A stretch of 36,246 nt of DNA from a virus (IMGVR_UViG_2703718820_000015:1-36246), one strand, 5' to 3'. Positions 1,657 to 31,854 are shown, numbered from the stretch's first letter. Notes: generated from the letters alone by a model not told the origin. Made by a program: numbers and translations.

Positions 1657-3582
1657 TTAGGCAGAAATATTCACAATCCCCCATGTACTTCCATTCCACA
1701 CCCATTGGACAGTAGGGTCGGAAGGATATGTTGCTGGAGATGTTCTGTAGGACACCAAGCCGATTGGGAAAGAACCTGTGTTCTCTGTCACAGTAGGCTT
1801 TGCGCTAGATCTCATTTTTACTTTCTCCCATCCGCAGAATACTGGAAGAAAGGTTCCGTTATACGGGCTAAAATACGCTCCTCCAACATAAGCGCTCATT
1901 CCGGATTCAACTGTAATCCTTAATCTGTATGCTTTACTTTTGTCGTTGGTTGGCGCTGAAACTTTGTATAACTTCCACCCTCCAACACCCATATCGTAGA
2001 ACTTATTAACTGACATATAGATGGAATTAGTACCATCTTGGGCTTCTATAGCTATCTCAAGTGGTGTGTCGCCTTTAAAGTAAAAAGCTCCACGAATGAA
2101 ACCTGTCTGTGTTTTAGTTAAATTTAGGGTTATTCTGCAACGTTGAGATGCGTTAGTGACTCCAAACCATCTACCGCAGCCAGATGGTTCATTAGGGTCA
2201 GAACCAACCTTTCGTTCGTTCGGTATAATTAAAAGGGAATAGTCAATAGGTGCTCCGTAGACTCCATCAATAACCGACCAATCTCCAGAAGGGCAAAGAT
2301 TAGAACCGGAGACACTGAACGTATCTCCTCCCTGTGCGCCTGCTGTAGGGTCTGTCCCTAATATGGTATTCATGGGGCTCATGGTTGAGGCCCAGTTACC
2401 ATATTGCACACGCGCGCCAAGTATGGTCCACGGCCCACGTATTTTCCCATTGCCCGTAACCTCGCCATACAAACCTATCACAACATTATGCTGATTTGGG
2501 GTGCTATTGTTATAGAGCAAATAATCGCCGCTTCCCGATGTGTCAAGACCTATAAATGTGTTTGCGTTCCCCTCATACGGAGCACCGGTCTGGCGACTAA
2601 AACCCGATCCAGTTATGATCAGACCACCACCGCAAAGCTGCTCAAATGTATTTTGATTTATAGATCCATCAGAGATGTCAATTATGAATCTGCCACCACC
2701 TGACGTAGTACCTGTTTTGATGCGTACAAATTGATTCCAAAAACTCCCGCCACCCCATTCAACCAACCCAGGCAGAGTGTATGCGTCTGATGATAAAAAT
2801 CTTATATCGCCGGTCGTATCAATGTTCGAGATAATAGAAAACTGTAGCCCTCTAATGTATAACGATTTACATGAAAGGCCAGTTACATTTATAGATTTAC
2901 TATGAAGGATTAGGAAATCCCCGTTAGGGATTCGGCCAACACAATCAACGTTACAGCGGATCACAAAGCGACCAGCAGAAGCATGAATGCCAGTCAGCTT
3001 GGTCATATCAACGACATAATCGCCTGGAGGGATATGCAATGATTTTCTGTTTTTCCCATACTCAACTAATTGTGAATAATCACCGTTAGCATAATCCAAT
3101 GCCTCACACAGTTTAGCAGTAACATCTGTACCATCCGGGAATACTCCCCATCCACGCACGTCTAAATCATCACGCCAGCGAGAAATCTGCAATGCGGGAT
3201 ATTTGGTTGCCCCATCAGGGTCTTCAATCTGCTGCCTTAACTGATCTGGGTCGTACTTCAGCACATTAGGAAAATAGAACTGCTGCGCACCATATGCATC
3301 ATAAACAGCCATAGAGTGGCCTTGCACAGTTACGAACTTGGCAATCTGTCCGTTATATACCGGATATCCAGCAGCATTAATGATGATTGGTTGCGAAACA
3401 GGAACGTGAGAGCCGTCTTCGTTCTCTATATAAACCTGAATCTGGTTTTCAGGATTTACCGGGTCAGTGTCAATTTTACCGATATAAATTTTGCCATTGG
3501 CTACGGCTTTAAAAGAACGAGCCATAGTGAAGAGTTGCGAAGGCATACTCACTACAACATTGGCATTTATTGAATCTGTCAT
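1657..3582 (-). CDS. Tailspike protein (P22 gp9-type head-binding domain plus receptor-binding domain)
   Basis: N-terminus [47 protein letters not shown] matches the conserved P22-family tailspike head-binding domain. Start moved to the internal ATG at 3580-3582, which has a GGAG SD; ORF-track start at 3618 is rejected. Confidence 0.9.
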
Positions 3583-3638
3583 TTGATTTGCTCCAGATAC
3601 AAGGAATGGCCGCAGCATGGCTACGGTGAATTTTGGGC

Positions 3639-3681: not shown

Positions 3682-4617
3682 TCAGTAGTTATGTACTGAA
3701 GGAGGTAATTCTTTATTCTTAAGTCTCATCCATGCGGAAAGATTCGTTGGTCCGTCTGGCTCATTGATATCAACATCTCGTGTGTGATTGATTAAAACGT
3801 CTCTCGCCATTCCGATAACATACGAGAACTCATGACCATAGTCGTAGCATCTGCCGGAATAGTTCGATTGAATTTGTTTTAATGCCGGATACAGTTCGCG
3901 GAATAACGCCTGTGAGCGGTTGGCATAATCCCATAACCATACAAGGCTGTTTGCTTCTTTTGCAGAAAGCTCGTTGGTTTTCTTCTCTTGTTTGCCAATG
4001 AACTCACCTTCAAGCGGAACGCGAGCAGCAAGTGACAGTGCTTCGGTAAACTGCTCATCACTGATTTCTTTGTACGAACATCCAAAATGGGATTTCAGTG
4101 ACGACCACATGGTGATCATCGCCTTCGCCTGTTTTTCTTTTGGCAGAGACTGACCGCGACTCATGACGAGTTGTTTAATGGCTTCCTGCTGTTCAGTGGT
4201 GATTTTACCCGGCAACGCCTTTTTAGCTTTGCGTGGGTTAACTACATGGCCTTTAGTCCAGTAGTCATGCAGCACGCTAAAGCATTCCTCCTGGTACTGA
4301 ATCAGTTTATCACGGATGTCAGCACGAACTTTCTCAGGGTTGATGCTGAACAGCCATCCATTTAGCTTCTTCAAAGGAAGGCAGAGTAGCTTACGAAGCT
4401 TCCCATCAGCGGCAACCATGTTCATATGAACACAGTTGAATTTGCTAATCTGCTTCATGAGTTTTGTTTGCTGCGTTGACCAGCTCATTCCAAGGTTTTC
4501 AACGATTGGCTTCATCGCAACATATGCAACTCCGGCAGCCATGGCGGTGATAATTTGCTGACCGTTGAATGGTACGTAAGAGGTGTTCACTGCTTCTAAA
4601 ATTGCTATACTATTCAT
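3682..4617 (-). CDS. ant: Antirepressor Ant
   Basis: Position immediately downstream of arc. N-terminus [21 protein letters not shown] preceded by GGAG SD, so start is set at 4617 rather than ORF-track 4683. Antirepressor-type domain architecture. Confidence 0.85.
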
Positions 4618-4688: not shown

Positions 4689-4847
4689 CGCGCCAATGCG
4701 CCCTTCCTTCTTAAAGCTGTCCATTACTCTCTGATAAATCTCAGAGTTAACAGACCGACCATTCTCTTCCGCCACCTTGCGTACCAAATCCAACACTTCT
4801 TTAGGCCACCGCAAATTGAACTGCGGCATTTTGCTCATTCCTTTCAT
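4686..4847 (-). CDS. arc: Arc repressor
   Basis: 53 aa [53 protein letters not shown], near-identical to P22 Arc as recalled; SD GAGGTG. ORF-track start at 4910 lies inside the Arc operator and is rejected. Confidence 0.95.
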
Positions 4848-4862
4848 ATTCACCTCACAATA

Positions 4863-4881
4863 TGGGTCCACCGTGGACCTA
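4863..4881. promoter_or_regulatory. Mnt operator (palindrome GGTCCACGGTGGACC)
   Basis: Perfect palindrome matching the known P22 Mnt operator, placed just downstream of the Pant -10. Confidence 0.8.
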
Positions 4882-4886
4882 TTGAG

Positions 4887-4915
4887 AATATAGTAGAGTG
4901 CTTCTATCATGTCAA
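4887..4915 (-). promoter_or_regulatory. Pant promoter (-35 TTGACA, 17-bp spacer, -10 TATATT)
   Basis: Read on the minus strand upstream of arc; the Arc operator fills the spacer, as in P22. Confidence 0.75.
4890..4910. promoter_or_regulatory. Arc operator (ATGATAGAAGCACTCTACTAT on minus strand)
   Basis: Exact match to the 21-bp P22 Arc operator sequence as recalled. Confidence 0.85.
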
Positions 4916-4937
4916 TACACTAACTTGGAGTGATGGC

Positions 4938-5192
4938 ATGGCTAGAGATGATCCGCACTTTAACTTCCGTATGCCTTTGGAAGTAAGAGAAAAATTGAAA
5001 TTAAGAGCCGAGGCTAACGGAAGGTCAATGAACTCTGAGTTATTACAAATCGTTCAGGATGCACTATCAAAACCATCACCGATTACAGGATATCGCGACG
5101 AAGCTGAACGCTTGGCTGATCAGCAGGCTGAGCAGTTCAAGGCTATAGTGTTTGAGACACTTAAAAAGATTTATGAAAAGGATTTGAAATGA
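4938..5192 (+). CDS. mnt: Mnt repressor
   Basis: 84 aa MARDDPHFNFRMPLEVREKLKLRAEANGRSMNSELLQIVQDAL..., ribbon-helix-helix, very similar to P22 Mnt as recalled; SD GGAG 8 nt upstream. Long ORF-track upstream extension rejected. Confidence 0.95.
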   Translation: MARDDPHFNFRMPLEVREKLKLRAEANGRSMNSELLQIVQDALSKPSPITGYRDEAERLADQQAEQFKAIVFETLKKIYEKDLK

Positions 5193-5524
5193 GATTTCTA
5201 TCACTGTTCTTGTTAGCAGTTGTCTCTTCTTCCAGTGCTGAGCTGCGCGAGCTTCAAACGGGTAATGACCTTCTTTACAACATTCAACAAGGTAAAAAGG
5301 GTGATGATTTTTCATCGCTTTACATTACTGGATATTTGCGCGGAGTAACTGACTCATTGATACTAATTGGTTCTCTATGTCCTCCTGATGGCGTTGACAT
5401 GTATCAATACACCGATATCGTTGAGAAATATCTAAACAAAAACCCAGAATCAAGAAATGAGAGCGCAGTTATACTAACAGCCCTAGCAGTAGGAAAAACA
5501 TTTCCGTGCAAAAAGAATCAATAA
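5189..5524 (+). CDS. Secreted/periplasmic protein of unknown function (signal peptide; mnt-coupled)
   Basis: 111 aa; N-terminal MRFLSLFLLAVVSSSSA signal peptide; start ATG overlaps the mnt stop (ATGA); AT-rich; occupies the slot where P22 has sieA. Confidence 0.6.
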   Translation: MRFLSLFLLAVVSSSSAELRELQTGNDLLYNIQQGKKGDDFSSLYITGYLRGVTDSLILIGSLCPPDGVDMYQYTDIVEKYLNKNPESRNESAVILTALAVGKTFPCKKNQ

Positions 5525-5539
5525 CAATAAGGGCTTAAA

Positions 5540-5929
5540 ATGAAATTGATTATAGCAATGGCTTTCCTTGTCTTCTCGTTTTCTGTCTCAGCAGAGTGCT
5601 GGGTCGTTGGGGATATGCACGGAATAAGCTATTCAGAACGAAATAATTTTCAACCGGAAGAAGATGGTTTTAGTGGAACATTCATCATTAAGACAAACGG
5701 TGAAGATGCCAGTATCACATATTCTGGGACGGATGCGGGCGGCATGGCTTACAAAGCATTGTCTAAAAACTCCATCATTGGAATCGGCGCGAATGGCGAA
5801 ACTCAACGAGTTATCGACTCATGGGTAATACATCCTAATGGAACAGTTTTAATGTCGAAAACCATTTCTGGTTATGGGAATATGGATTCAACCAAAGCTT
5901 TTATTGGAAAAGTAAAAAGAAAATGTTAA
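5540..5929 (+). CDS. Secreted protein of unknown function (signal peptide, Cys near both termini)
   Basis: 129 aa; MKLIIAMAFLVFSFSVSA signal peptide with VSA/E cleavage motif; AAGGG SD; AT-rich; directly follows the previous gene. Confidence 0.6.
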   Translation: MKLIIAMAFLVFSFSVSAECWVVGDMHGISYSERNNFQPEEDGFSGTFIIKTNGEDASITYSGTDAGGMAYKALSKNSIIGIGANGETQRVIDSWVIHPNGTVLMSKTISGYGNMDSTKAFIGKVKRKC

Positions 5930-5953
5930 CGATTGAATCCAATTACCCATACT

Positions 5954-7795
5954 TTACTGCTGTGTTGCCTCAGTAGCAAGCAGCGGCCTGATGGCATTTG
6001 CAGCGTTACTCAACGCTCTTTCATAGGCTGGTGTTCCTGCTTTGGTGTTTGCCAGACGTAAGAGCGCATTCCTTGCTGCTTTGGACTCATACAAGCGCAT
6101 CATTGCACCGAAACCAGCCTCAATCCCCATTGATACGCCAAGAGTCGCAGTTGCGCCAATCGTCCTTATCCTGTTGGCTTGTGATTGCCCAGTCTGAGTT
6201 ACTACATTTGCGGTGTCTGACCTTGCTGTTTGCTGTAGAACTTCATGAAGAGCATCAAGCTCTTTCATGTGCTTTCCAGAAAAAATAGTGTTGTAAATTT
6301 CACCGCCTGACTGAGATTTCAGCTTATTAACTTCAGTGATGAACTTGGCTGGAGAGTCCCCGGCCTTTTCCGCTATTTTGCTGACGTAAGCTGCACGCAT
6401 AGCATCTTTCCCCTTATCATCCAGTGCGCTCCAGATTCGTTTCACGTCAGATGGTTTTCTGCTTAATACAACGGTATTTATAAGTTCAGGACTGGCTTCA
6501 CTGCTTGCCTTGTTGAGCTTGTTGGCAATGTTTTTATTAAGCACCTTATTATAAACGTTTGCATAATCGGAATTTGCTTTAAGGTATTTTGCTGCGTCTG
6601 ATGCACCGAGGTTTTTAGCAACTGCGTTACGAAGGTCTTTTGACATTGCATTCTCTACCATATTGGTAGCTGCTTTTGCCTGGTTGGGGAAGACCATAGC
6701 ATCTCCCTGAACATTAGATCTAAATGCTGTTCTGTGCTGACGCAAGAGATCAAACGTAACATCCAAATCAGTTGCAGGGTTTGCTAATTCTTCACGTAGG
6801 TTACGCAAGGATGTAAGCAGGCTTTGATTGGCAGACGTCCCAAGCCGTTCCTGTCTTGCGATCGCTGTATTCAGAGCATTCATGGTATTTGTGGTATCAA
6901 CTGCGGCATTACCCATTTTATTGGTGACGTCATTGATAACAGCGCCAGCGGCATCCTTCCGCCCCCTTAACGTGGTGGTCAGAGATTTCACCACATCATC
7001 CGGGTTGTACTCACCAAAACGCTCAAAATAATTACTTACCAACTTACTCCGCGTTGCATATTGCTCTGCCCTTTTACTGCCAGTTCCAAGAATGGCCCCC
7101 TCAGCATCCTGAGTAAGACCACGAGTGAAAGCATTTTTCGGCTGGATAACATCAGATGTCATTGGTGTCACGCCCATCGATTCTGATGTGGCAATTTTCT
7201 TCGCCACTTCTGGCGCAATATCACCTTTTATAGCCGTTATTCCACGCCCTATTCCCTTTGCTGCTGCGGAAAGAACACCCTGAGCGGCAAGGTTAACTCC
7301 GGCATTTTTAGCTGCATTTTGTGCGAAATCGCCTTTCTGATTTGCGGCCTCTGCCAGTGATCCAATAGCCATGCTTCCTGCCGTTCCAACTCCTGGAACT
7401 AAATACCCACCAATTGTTTCACCGGCTTGCGCGTAGGGGTCTGTCGGTCTGTCTACTGGACGATAAACATCATCCAAAACCTTGGGTCCACCAAGCCCCT
7501 GACTGATTGCATTAATCAGACTTGCGCCGCCCTGCAATACGTCAAATGGTATGTTTACCAGACCACGACCAGCCTGTTCTGCAATTTGCCCTGCACTTTG
7601 ACCACCAGTGAGCCAATCGCCAGCTTGTTGCATCAATGATGGTTCTTCACGTGCTGGTTCATTGCTATCCTGGCTGACAGTTTGTTGCTGAACAGACTGT
7701 CCAGCAAAATACTCATCAATGGCAGATCCAATATCTTCCGTGCTCGTACCATCAGGGAAGGTAAATGTCTTACCGTTTGCAGTTACTTTCATCAT
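5954..7795 (-). CDS. DNA-ejection (injection) protein, P22 gp16-like
   Basis: 613 aa, Ala/Gly/Gln-rich, last gene of the late operon in P22 order (P22 gp16 is about 609 aa). Confidence 0.8.
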
Positions 7796-30257: not shown

Positions 30258-30368
30258 ATGCCCTCCATAGTAACCATGAAGCAATAATACGATATGTACT
30301 TTTAGAATGCAAACAAAAAATACATCTTGTGCATGGATGATTTTAGTACAGAGCGTAATAATAAGGGT
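30258..30368. promoter_or_regulatory. OR/PR/PRM region
   Basis: Minus-strand PR (-35 TTGCAT, 17-bp spacer, -10 TATTAT) with a 16-bp operator-like site AAGTACATATCGTATT overlapping it (30286-30301); a second related site near 30341-30356; plus-strand TAATAA -10 just before the cI ATG suggests a leaderless PRM transcript. Confidence 0.6.
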
Positions 30369-31028
30369 ATGAAAATGAAATGGTATGAACTGGCTAGATC
30401 CAGAATGAAAGAGCTCGGCATAACTCAAGAGAAGTTAGCTGAAGAGCTTGGTATGACGCAGGGTGGAATTGGTCACTGGTTGCGCGGATCTCGTCATCCA
30501 TCTCTTGACGAGATTGGTGTGGTGTTTAAATACCTTGGTATTGATAACGTCTCATTCAACCACGACGGTACATTTTCACCTGTTGGCGAATACTCATCTG
30601 CCCCCGTTAAAAAACAATATGAGTACCCTGTTTTTTCTCATGTTCAGGCCGGGATGTTCTCGCCTGAGCTTAGAACCTTTACCAAAGGTGATGCGGAGAG
30701 ATGGGTCAGCACAACCAAAAAAGCCAGTGATTGTGCGTTCTGGCTTGAAGTTGAAGGTAATTCCATGACCGCGCCAACAGGATCCAAGCCAAGCTTTCCT
30801 GACGGGATGTTAATTCTCGTTGACCCTGAGCAGGCTGTTGAGCCAGGTGATTTCTGCATAGCCAGACTTGGTGGTGACGAGTTTACCTTCAAGAAACTGA
30901 TCAGGGATAGCGGTCAGGTGTTCCTACAGCCACTAAACCCGCAATATCCAATGATTCCATGCAATGATAGCTGTTCCGTAGTAGGGAAAGTTATCGCCAG
31001 CCAGTGGCCTGAAGAGACATTTAGTTAA
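30369..31028 (+). CDS. cI: CI-type prophage repressor: heterologous HTH N-domain fused to a lambda-like S24 C-domain
   Basis: From [20 protein letters not shown] to the end the protein matches the lambda CI C-terminal domain as recalled; the N-terminal HTH domain is unrelated to lambda CI. Start is either 30369 or 30375. Confidence 0.9.
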
Positions 31029-31060
31029 CAGCCTCACAACTCTAAAACACACAACAATAA

Positions 31061-31089
31061 CCCGACCTTAGCGTCGGGTTTTCTTTTTC
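31061..31089 (+). terminator. Intrinsic terminator downstream of cI
   Basis: CCCGAC-CTTAGC-GTCGGG hairpin followed by TTTTCTTTTT. Confidence 0.7.
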
Positions 31090-31153
31090 CAAAATATAAA
31101 CCCATTAAATACAAAGCGTTATAAAAAACTAATTATATTTAGAACATTTTGTA

Positions 31154-31182
31154 TTGACTCGATAAAGTACAAATCGTACTAT
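31154..31182 (+). promoter_or_regulatory. pL promoter with overlapping operator OL1
   Basis: -35 TTGACT (31154-31159), 17-bp spacer, -10 TACTAT (31177-31182); operator-like AAGTACAAATCGTACT at 31165-31180, 14 of 16 identical to the OR site. Confidence 0.65.
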
Positions 31183-31223
31183 TTAGCCATCAGCAGGACG
31201 CACTAACCACCATTGAAGGTGAG

Positions 31224-31253
31224 GCTCTTAAAAATTTAGCCCTGAAGAAGGGC
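31224..31253 (+). promoter_or_regulatory. nutL (boxA GCTCTTAAA, boxB GCCCTGAAGAAGGGC)
   Basis: Matches lambda nutL as recalled, between pL and N. Confidence 0.85.
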
Positions 31254-31521
31254 AGCATTCAAAGCAGAAGGCTTTGGGGTGTGGTGAAGCCAGCTAGTCA
31301 CTGGCAAGTGCTTACCTACTGTTGAGCGGTGAAGCGCTCCCAACGCTAGCAATAGCGTGGACGAGATGGGGAGCCGCGGGCGATAAGGCCGCCATAACGC
31401 GCACGTTGTCGCATGGAAAAATCGCTGGGGTGCCGGTTATCCCCCTCCGAATGAGACTCAACAAGCTGGAGCTAGACTACCAGCCACCACACCACCAAAG
31501 CTAACTGACAGGAGAATCCAG

Positions 31522-31854
31522 ATGGATGCACAAACACGCCGCCGCGAACGTCGCGCAGAGAAACAGGCTCAATGGAAAGCAGCAAATCCCCTGTTGGTTG
31601 GGGTAAGCGCAAAACCAGTTAACCGCCCTATTCTCTCGCTGAATCGCAAACCGAAATCACGAGTAGAAAGCGCACTGAATCCGATAGACCTTACGGTGCT
31701 GGCTGAATACCACGAACAGATTGAAAGCAACCTGCAGCGTATTGAGCGCAAGAATCAGCGCACATGGTACAGCAAGCCACGCAGTGAAATGGGTGTGACT
31801 TGCTCAGGCCGCCAGAAGCAACGCGGAAAATCAATTCCAGCTTATTACGATTGA
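31522..31854 (+). CDS. N: Antitermination protein N (lambda type)
   Basis: 110 aa; arginine-rich motif MDAQTRRRERRAEKQAQWKAAN and most of the body match lambda N as recalled; C-terminus diverges. Confidence 0.9.
   Translation: MDAQTRRRERRAEKQAQWKAANPLLVGVSAKPVNRPILSLNRKPKSRVESALNPIDLTVLAEYHEQIESNLQRIERKNQRTWYSKPRSEMGVTCSGRQKQRGKSIPAYYD

Follow-up and report, generated by a model that had tools for sequence, protein, structure and literature searches.

A candidate lysogen-expressed periplasmic protection cassette, pairing an orphan Rap1a/Tai4-family gene with a Hex-family gene, in the mnt operon of a P22-like Escherichia coli prophage

Introduction

In phage P22, orf59a, the mnt terminator, a sieA promoter, and sieA lie between the repressor gene mnt and gene 16 (BK000583 annotation). 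We analyzed the corresponding interval in a 36,246-nucleotide (nt) stretch of viral DNA (IMGVR_UViG_2703718820_000015:1-36246; "the window" below means this whole stretch), a P22-like (Lederbergvirus-type) prophage of Escherichia coli in which two small open reading frames, ORF1 and ORF2, follow mnt. Their products resemble two groups of described proteins: the Rap1a and Tai4 immunity proteins, known from type VI secretion systems (T6SS), and the Hex protein of phage 434.

Proteins of the Rap family have a structural disulfide, Sec signal peptides, and an acidic isoelectric point (pI), and they form dimers (PMC3533786). Orphan or acquired immunity genes have been described on mobile elements in the AID clusters of Bacteroidales (bioRxiv 10.1101/471110), and Ralstonia prophages carry T6SS auxiliary effector/immunity clusters (PMC11481896); our literature search returned nothing specific on phage-borne Rap1a/Tai4 genes. 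For Hex, Shkilnyj et al., citing Susskind and Botstein, state that Salmonella lysogens of lambda-imm434 exclude P22 only when hex is intact (PMC3564112). The same study reports that deletion of hex gives 30-fold more spontaneous induction in recA+ cells, an effect that depends on recA and is partly complemented by a Hex fragment, sHex, and that sHex blocks the RecA-stimulated cleavage of the 434 and P22 repressors in vitro. Overexpression of full-length Hex was toxic or lethal, and sHex was purified through guanidine hydrochloride (PMC3564112).

We give an even chance to the reading that ORF1 and ORF2 are a lysogen-expressed periplasmic protection cassette, combining orphan Rap1a/Tai4 anti-T6SS immunity with phage exclusion of the Hex family. 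The two genes would form a lysogenic-conversion cassette of immI, read with mnt on the Pmnt transcript and thus made whenever the phage is a prophage, and both products would leave the cytoplasm through Sec and function in the periplasm. There, ORF1, like Rap1a and Tai4, would most likely be a helical protein stabilized by a disulfide; by binding a Tae4/Ssp1-type peptidoglycan amidase from a rival's T6SS, it would block the enzyme and so protect the lysogen, and hence the prophage. ORF2, at the place of sieA beside gene 16, would most likely exclude heterologous phages at the envelope or DNA-entry step. The functions in this scheme (export, lysogen expression, the target of ORF1, and exclusion by ORF2) are ones that we infer; the analysis itself establishes that the genes are real, how the operon is laid out, to which families the proteins belong, which folds are predicted for them, and that their location is conserved. 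Two points are new: an orphan immunity gene is wired into the operon of Mnt, and ORF2 is linked to an apparently exported Hex family.

Two Small Genes Between mnt and Gene 16

The operon comprises the following features.

4938-5192, + strand: mnt (84 residues), the lysogeny-maintenance repressor and first gene of the operon (Pfam Arc, 3.7e-28; Repressor_Mnt, 1.3e-11; ~85% nucleotide identity to P22 mnt)
5189-5524, + strand: ORF1 (111 residues), assigned to the Rap1a/Tai4 family by Pfam PF18602
5525-5539, + strand: intergenic gap of 15 nt, holding in its sequence a TAAGGG Shine-Dalgarno motif (5528-5533) for ORF2
5540-5929, + strand: ORF2 (129 residues), assigned to the Hex family by phrog_2651

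A first-pass annotation, made from the sequence alone, had placed two low-GC genes with cleavable signal peptides beyond mnt, in the slot where P22 carries sieA, and we found both on the forward strand, between mnt and the gene 16 homologue, at the coordinates it gave. Their guanine–cytosine (GC) content is indeed low, 39.0% in ORF1 and 39.7% in ORF2 compared with 47.8% in the window. Because mnt is low as well (40.8%), the AT-richness covers the whole immI patch and extends beyond the two genes. ORF1 and ORF2 are real genes and not chance open reading frames: both have low ratios of nonsynonymous to synonymous substitution (dN/dS), AlphaFold2 (AF2) models that are confident for ORF2 and moderately so for ORF1, and conservation across diverged prophages, to which ORF1 adds a Pfam match. 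In comparisons with unsaturated dS, dN/dS was 0.11-0.42 for ORF1 and 0.12-0.31 for ORF2, so that both are under purifying selection.

We judged signal peptides by sequence rules, which call for a basic N terminus followed by a hydrophobic core and for small residues at positions -1 and -3. By these rules, a signal peptide is predicted at residues 1-17 of ORF1 (5189-5239), with cleavage at SSSA↓EL, and at residues 1-18 of ORF2 (5540-5593), with cleavage at SVSA↓EC. The features are kept in 7 of 7 ORF1-type and 43 of 44 ORF2-family sequences, the peptide sequences themselves being variable. The cleavable signal peptides of the earlier annotation are thus supported by rule-based features conserved among homologues, and Sec export of both products to the periplasm is the probable outcome.

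ORF1 and the Rap1a/Tai4 Immunity Proteins

Pfam PF18602 (Rap1a immunity proteins) matches ORF1 along the entire model (1-90 of 90) at 9.7e-15 and 55.3 bits, above a cutoff of 27.7, and it also matches all six homologue clusters. The AF2 model of ORF1, of moderate confidence (predicted local distance difference test, pLDDT, 80.8), has four helices after the signal peptide. Its top seven Foldseek matches in the Protein Data Bank (PDB) are all Rap1a (3zfi; 4bi8, the Ssp1-Rap1a complex) or Tai4 (6ije; 6ijf, the Tae4-Tai4 complex), with a probability of 1.00 and target-normalized TM-scores of 0.73-0.78; the next match has a TM-score of 0.33. The predicted mature protein (~94 residues, ~10 kDa, pI 5.2) contains Cys64 and Cys107, which are invariant in 7 of 7 homologues and align with both cysteines of the Agrobacterium tumefaciens Tai4 (6ijf). 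The earlier guess that this protein is Rap1a/Tai4-like was therefore correct by Pfam hidden Markov model (HMM), predicted fold, and conserved cysteine pair. Sequence searches of the PDB, with the single sequence and with a profile, gave marginal Tai4 matches only, and neither PADLOC nor NCBIfam had a match for ORF1 or ORF2. The family assignment is not new, because RefSeq already carries the label "Rap1a/Tai family immunity protein" for ORF1.

ORF1 therefore resembles Rap1a of Serratia marcescens and Tai4 of A. tumefaciens in its Pfam match, Sec signal peptide, all-helical Rap fold, cysteine pair, and small, acidic mature protein. It differs from them in having no Tae4/Ssp effector next to it, in lying outside any T6SS cluster, and in being carried by a temperate phage with translational coupling to the Mnt repressor. 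Because no Tae4/Ssp effector adjoins ORF1 or its close relatives, we classify it from its gene neighborhoods as an orphan member of the family. As in the AID and Ralstonia clusters, a mobile element would provide immunity to interbacterial toxins independently of any T6SS that the host itself has. However, ORF1 is a single orphan immunity gene inside the phage's lysogeny-control operon, and neither an array on an integrative and conjugative element nor a complete vgrG-effector-immunity cargo cluster.

All six close homologue clusters and 15 IMG/VR loci belong to P22-like prophages of E. coli and Serratia, and the ATG of the homologue overlaps the mnt stop in every locus for which we had coordinates or read the junction. 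ORF1-type loci occur in Serratia fonticola, in Serratia sp. JSRIV002 (single copy), in a diverged E. coli lineage, and on a contig of the Logan metagenome assembly. The gene is rare in E. coli, being present in 26 of 5426 complete genomes. In an S. fonticola prophage (L005 8001-8715), the interval from mnt to gene 16 is taken up by two tandem Rap1a-family genes, which encode 112 and 119 residues, are ~31% identical to each other, and resemble in their arrangement a typical immunity-gene array. The second of these paralogues has no detectable similarity to solved Rap proteins. A lone Tai4-like gene, labelled "type VI amidase" and with no effector beside it, is present in the unrelated environmental phage DSL-LC04. 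We also noted a weak match to ORF1 in Bacillus phage vB_BspP_Dartukuta (MW749009.1 56689-56883; 34% identity over 65 residues, E 2e-5), which is unexpected for a periplasmic immunity fold since the host is Gram-positive.

This distribution bears on whether ORF1 acts against T6SS toxins at all. Phages might instead have turned a periplasmic inhibitor of the Rap fold against a peptidoglycan hydrolase, one used by superinfecting phages or belonging to another class of toxin, or ORF1 might be a nonbinding paralogue of the Rap1b/Rap2b kind with a different role. The close relatives of ORF1 are all phage-borne, with none beside an effector; it accompanies an exclusion-family gene in four diverged lineages; Rap1a/Tai4-like genes are also found in an unrelated environmental phage; and some P22-like ejection proteins adjoining the slot carry an SLT lytic-transglycosylase domain. 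Moreover, as Rap1b and Rap2b demonstrate, a protein can have this fold and yet not bind Ssp. Nevertheless, neutralization of Tae4/Ssp amidases is the sole demonstrated activity of the family (PMC3533786), the two immunity proteins matched by fold have structures in complex with their effectors, and orphan immunity genes on mobile elements are established, as in the AID clusters. We consider a role outside T6SS defense unlikely, although it deserves some weight, and retain anti-T6SS immunity as the preferred function of ORF1.

ORF2 and the Hex Family

All sources label ORF2 "hypothetical." Pfam, NCBIfam, and PADLOC give no match for it, and its family is without a Pfam model. Its relatives were recognized through phrog_2651 ("unknown function"), which matches ORF2 at 6.3e-60 and Hex of phage 434 at 1.4e-58. 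BLASTP aligns the two proteins over their full length (133 columns) with 29% identity at 1e-14, and a tblastn search of phage sequences (2.3 Gb) with ORF2 yielded a 434-type match at 4e-7 together with close copies in the Salmonella phages Emek and ST-35. Full-length matches of 28.6% identity lie at the cI end in 434, lambda imm434, Sf6 (gene 38), HK633, HK446, and Sf101; in 434, the start of hex overlaps the end of cI by 4 nt, and the hex product bears the annotation "repressor protection protein." A profile search with ORF2 linked both subfamilies and collected 107 clusters from Enterobacterales and Aeromonas, all labelled hypothetical. Of the 96 family representatives given by an exhaustive search, nearly all consist of a single domain and have about 100-150 residues. 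The invariant positions of the family are C20, W21, G28, Y71, G81, W95, K107, G123, and C129 (ORF2 numbering).

By these alignments, ORF2 is a full-length, distant homologue of 434 Hex and Sf6 gp38. It shares with them a signal peptide, the x-C-W mature N terminus, a C-terminal cysteine, and a gene position shortly after that of a lysogeny repressor, on the transcript of the lysogen. It differs from Hex in its setting, lying downstream of Mnt in immI beside gene 16, whereas Hex lies downstream of cI in immC. The HMM and Foldseek searches that the first-pass annotation had put forward for both proteins thus led to Rap1a/Tai4 for ORF1 and, for ORF2, to phrog_2651 (Hex) by profile and to generic small barrels by fold.

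The predicted mature ORF2 has 111 residues, a pI of 6.1, and two cysteines, Cys20 and Cys129. Its AF2 model (pLDDT 91) is a small beta-barrel of nine predicted strands. The first and last of these carry the two invariant cysteines, each close to one end of the mature chain. Fold searches found generic small barrels only, and sequence searches of the PDB returned noise with single sequence and profile alike. The model suggests that the barrel is soluble in the periplasm and not embedded in the outer membrane. An outer-membrane barrel of the NspA, OmpW, OmpA, or PagP kind was rejected because the protein is small, its strands are short, it has the cysteine pair, and no aromatic residue stands at its C terminus. 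A lipoprotein was rejected on account of the D, E, N, or Q that most members have at position -1 relative to the cysteine, and a lysozyme inhibitor of the MliC/PliC/PhiA type was likewise set aside, given that there is no Pfam MliC/PliC match and that the barrel matches are generic.

Two annotations of family members depart from this description. The RefSeq/PGAP start of an ORF2 homologue (L002 3716-4030, NZ_CP067399; equivalent to window positions 5615-5929) is an internal Met, giving a 104-residue form without the signal peptide or the invariant Cys-Trp; the 129-residue form is conserved in the family and is annotated in Emek. The other concerns Escherichia phage Huey (PQ850609.1 25928-26323), in which the product of a Hex-family gene that follows the repressor carries the name "lipid A acylation protein PagP"; this label was probably transferred by fold from the generic 8-stranded barrel.

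ORF2-type genes are present in 147 of 5426 complete E. coli genomes (2.7%), usually without ORF1. Nearly all of the best 80 IMG/VR loci have ORF2 and gene 16 in convergent orientation, and 13 of the 80 also contain ORF1. In the window, ORF2 is the third gene counting from mnt; other P22-like phages have a relative (53% identity) immediately after mnt, whose stop codon it overlaps.

The homology also brings in a different function. As published for 434 Hex, ORF2 could act in the cytoplasm, binding the prophage's LexA-like repressor and blocking its RecA-stimulated autocleavage, and would then stabilize lysogeny rather than exclude phages. The hex deletion, the complementation by sHex, and the block of cleavage in vitro (PMC3564112) argue for this role; furthermore, the window encodes an S24 LexA-like repressor (about 30327-31028), and ORF2 is probably co-expressed with a lysogeny repressor. 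However, the 158-residue Hex of that study corresponds to a 134-residue open reading frame plus 24 upstream codons, and 434 Hex (L003 1929-2405, OL657227) has a typical Sec signal peptide with predicted cleavage at SANS↓ECW. The sHex protein (E43-N103 in the 158-residue numbering) starts at the first residue after this site and spans approximately the first half of the predicted barrel. The words "signal" and "periplasm" occur 0 times in PMC3564112, and export was never considered there. In addition to the AXA-type signal peptide site found in ORF2, Hex, and 43 of 44 members, the invariant cysteine pair is as expected of a periplasmic disulfide, the sHex activities come from about half a barrel purified through guanidine hydrochloride, and overexpression of the full-length protein was toxic. 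Because the signal peptide and the cysteine pair are conserved, we infer that the Hex family is exported and that the cytoplasmic mechanism needs re-examination. We therefore regard a cytoplasmic, repressor-protecting ORF2 as improbable and favor a periplasmic one. Downstream of the S24-type repressor gene of the window, the ~500 bases up to an N-like gene (31028-31522) hold no Hex-type open reading frame overlapping the repressor stop, unlike in 434 and Sf6; the sole listed open reading frame there has 60 residues and a TTG start (31322-31504).

ORF1 and ORF2 as Probably Separate Cargo

The ORF1-ORF2 pair recurs in four diverged lineages. In one of these loci (L032), ORF1 is 81% identical to that of the window, whereas ORF2 is 48% identical to that of the window and 79% identical to that of another locus (L028). 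In E. coli, ORF2-type genes outnumber ORF1 approximately sixfold, and they are also found by themselves behind mnt or cI; ORF1, in turn, occurs alone or duplicated in Serratia. A coevolving ORF1-ORF2 complex was rejected on the grounds of the independent assortment seen in L032. Because the genes assort independently, we read them as two apparently separate modules stacked in one cargo slot.

The same comparisons leave little room for a single functional unit, that is, a complex or a paired immunity against a two-toxin attacker in which ORF2 would be a new beta-barrel inhibitor of a second cell-wall enzyme, comparable to the lysozyme inhibitors MliC, PliC, or PhiA. The unequal identities of the two genes in L032, the excess of ORF2, and the finding of each gene alone speak against it, as do the lack of a Pfam MliC/PliC match and the generic barrel matches, and we consider it very improbable.

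Other genes also enter the slot. In E. coli NZ_CP104500 (L035 2915-3334), a reverse-strand gene for a "peptidase associated/transthyretin-like domain" protein lies between mnt and a Hex-like gene, and a transthyretin-like gene is found in the slot in many E. coli P22-like prophages without ORF1. Because this gene replaces ORF1 there, the comparison shows that the interval between mnt and gene 16 is a cargo hotspot.

Expected Expression with the mnt Repressor

Expression of ORF1 and ORF2 in the lysogen would depend on the control region upstream of mnt and on the mnt-ORF1 junction, which comprise the following elements.

4864-4886: Omnt, coordinates transferred from the P22 annotation BK000583
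4882-4910, + strand: Pmnt, transferred from BK000583 and found by consensus scan as TTGAGA-17-TATCAT
4915-4887, - strand: Pant, transferred from BK000583 and found by consensus scan as TTGACA-17-TATATT
4890-4910: Oarc, coordinates transferred from BK000583
5178-5192, + strand: coupling site, with an AAGGA Shine-Dalgarno motif (5178-5182) inside mnt followed by ATGA

These promoters and operators make up a divergent immI control region (4864-4915), and window positions 4840-4945 are 98% identical to P22. The consensus scan recovered the same two promoters, Pmnt and Pant, independently of the P22 coordinates. Given this close identity to the P22 control region, expression of ORF1 and ORF2 in the lysogen from Pmnt is a sound expectation. 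A terminator scan from mnt to the end of ORF2, including the 15-nt gap, found no terminator-like hairpin.

The translational coupling of ORF1 to mnt through ATGA, proposed in the first-pass annotation, is seen and recurs in every related prophage examined. The ORF1 ATG (5189-5191) overlaps the mnt TGA (5190-5192), and AAGGA lies six bases upstream. The AAGGA...ATGA junction is also present in L005, L012, L028, L029, and L030; in L032, the ATGA overlap is kept, with no AAGGA within the stretch printed. Inside ORF1, a promoter-like TTGACA-16-TATCGT (10/12 matches; 5394-5421) lies ~120 nt upstream of ORF2 and, from its sequence, could drive ORF2 independently; the number of promoter-like sites of this type in the region is within chance expectation.

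The same annotation had likened the position of the pair to that of sieA. The position holds, just before the convergent gene 16 in immI, and so does the general character of a non-essential function made in the lysogen. The fit is inexact, however: P22 sieA has its own promoter after the mnt terminator and hence no translational link to mnt, and because of this separate promoter the parallel is one of position only. In a tblastn search of 50,697 phage records with ORF1 and ORF2, no P22 record was matched, hence no similarity to sieA. SieA is an inner-membrane protein, whereas ORF1 and ORF2 are predicted to be soluble periplasmic proteins.

Support for a Proposed Periplasmic Protection Cassette

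The homology of ORF2 to 434 Hex adds a second, independent line of support to the earlier proposal that the two genes are a periplasmic conversion or exclusion module. Several points weigh against the protection cassette. Similarity of ORF1 to the solved Rap1a and Tai4 proteins is weak (phmmer E about 0.1; 24-26% identity), and ORF1 has no match to the Salmonella/Enterobacter-type Tai4 family. No cognate effector was identified for it: its neighbors are mnt, ORF2, and gene 16, and no effector gene stands beside its close relatives. Rap1b and Rap2b of S. marcescens are family members that do not bind Ssp toxins (PMC3533786), and because of them an immunity function of ORF1, drawn by analogy with Rap1a and Tai4, is likely but not assured. 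As for ORF2, the one biochemical study made of Hex places its action, protection of repressor from RecA, in the cytoplasm (PMC3564112), and the exclusion phenotype of Hex is documented only for P22 in Salmonella. Lastly, the predicted export of both proteins follows from rule-based signal-peptide calls.

The two products might alternatively form a periplasmic cell-wall shield against phages, with the Rap fold recruited against a virion peptidoglycan hydrolase and the Hex barrel blocking the ejection conduit or its SLT domain. We consider such a shield improbable. If it held, the whole Hex family would be periplasmic and the published cytoplasmic anti-RecA mechanism would be overturned.

If ORF1 instead protects against Tae4/Ssp-type toxins, as the protection cassette implies, lysogeny itself would immunize E. 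coli or Serratia against T6SS attack, and phage carriage would be linked to interbacterial warfare via the phage's lysogeny operon. The ORF2 result ties about 100 "hypothetical" clusters, found in 2.7% of complete E. coli genomes, to one named member, Hex. The export hallmarks of the family make the decades-old exclusion of P22 by Hex, and the disputed mechanism of that protein, directly testable.

Genomic Setting

The operon is flanked by P22-type genes as follows.

1657-3618, - strand: tailspike gene
3682-4617, - strand: ant
Between ant and mnt, - strand: arc
Beyond ORF2, convergent to ORF2: gene 16 homologue and gene 20 ejection genes

Some ejection proteins adjoining the slot in related prophages are long (836-933 residues) and carry an SLT domain (L007 8536-11337; L012 5719-8229), which in L012 is fused to the gp16 domain. 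Positions 4900-5960 of the window are found at at least 80% coverage in 24 of 5426 complete E. coli genomes, and they recur at at least 99% identity in 20 complete E. coli chromosomes.

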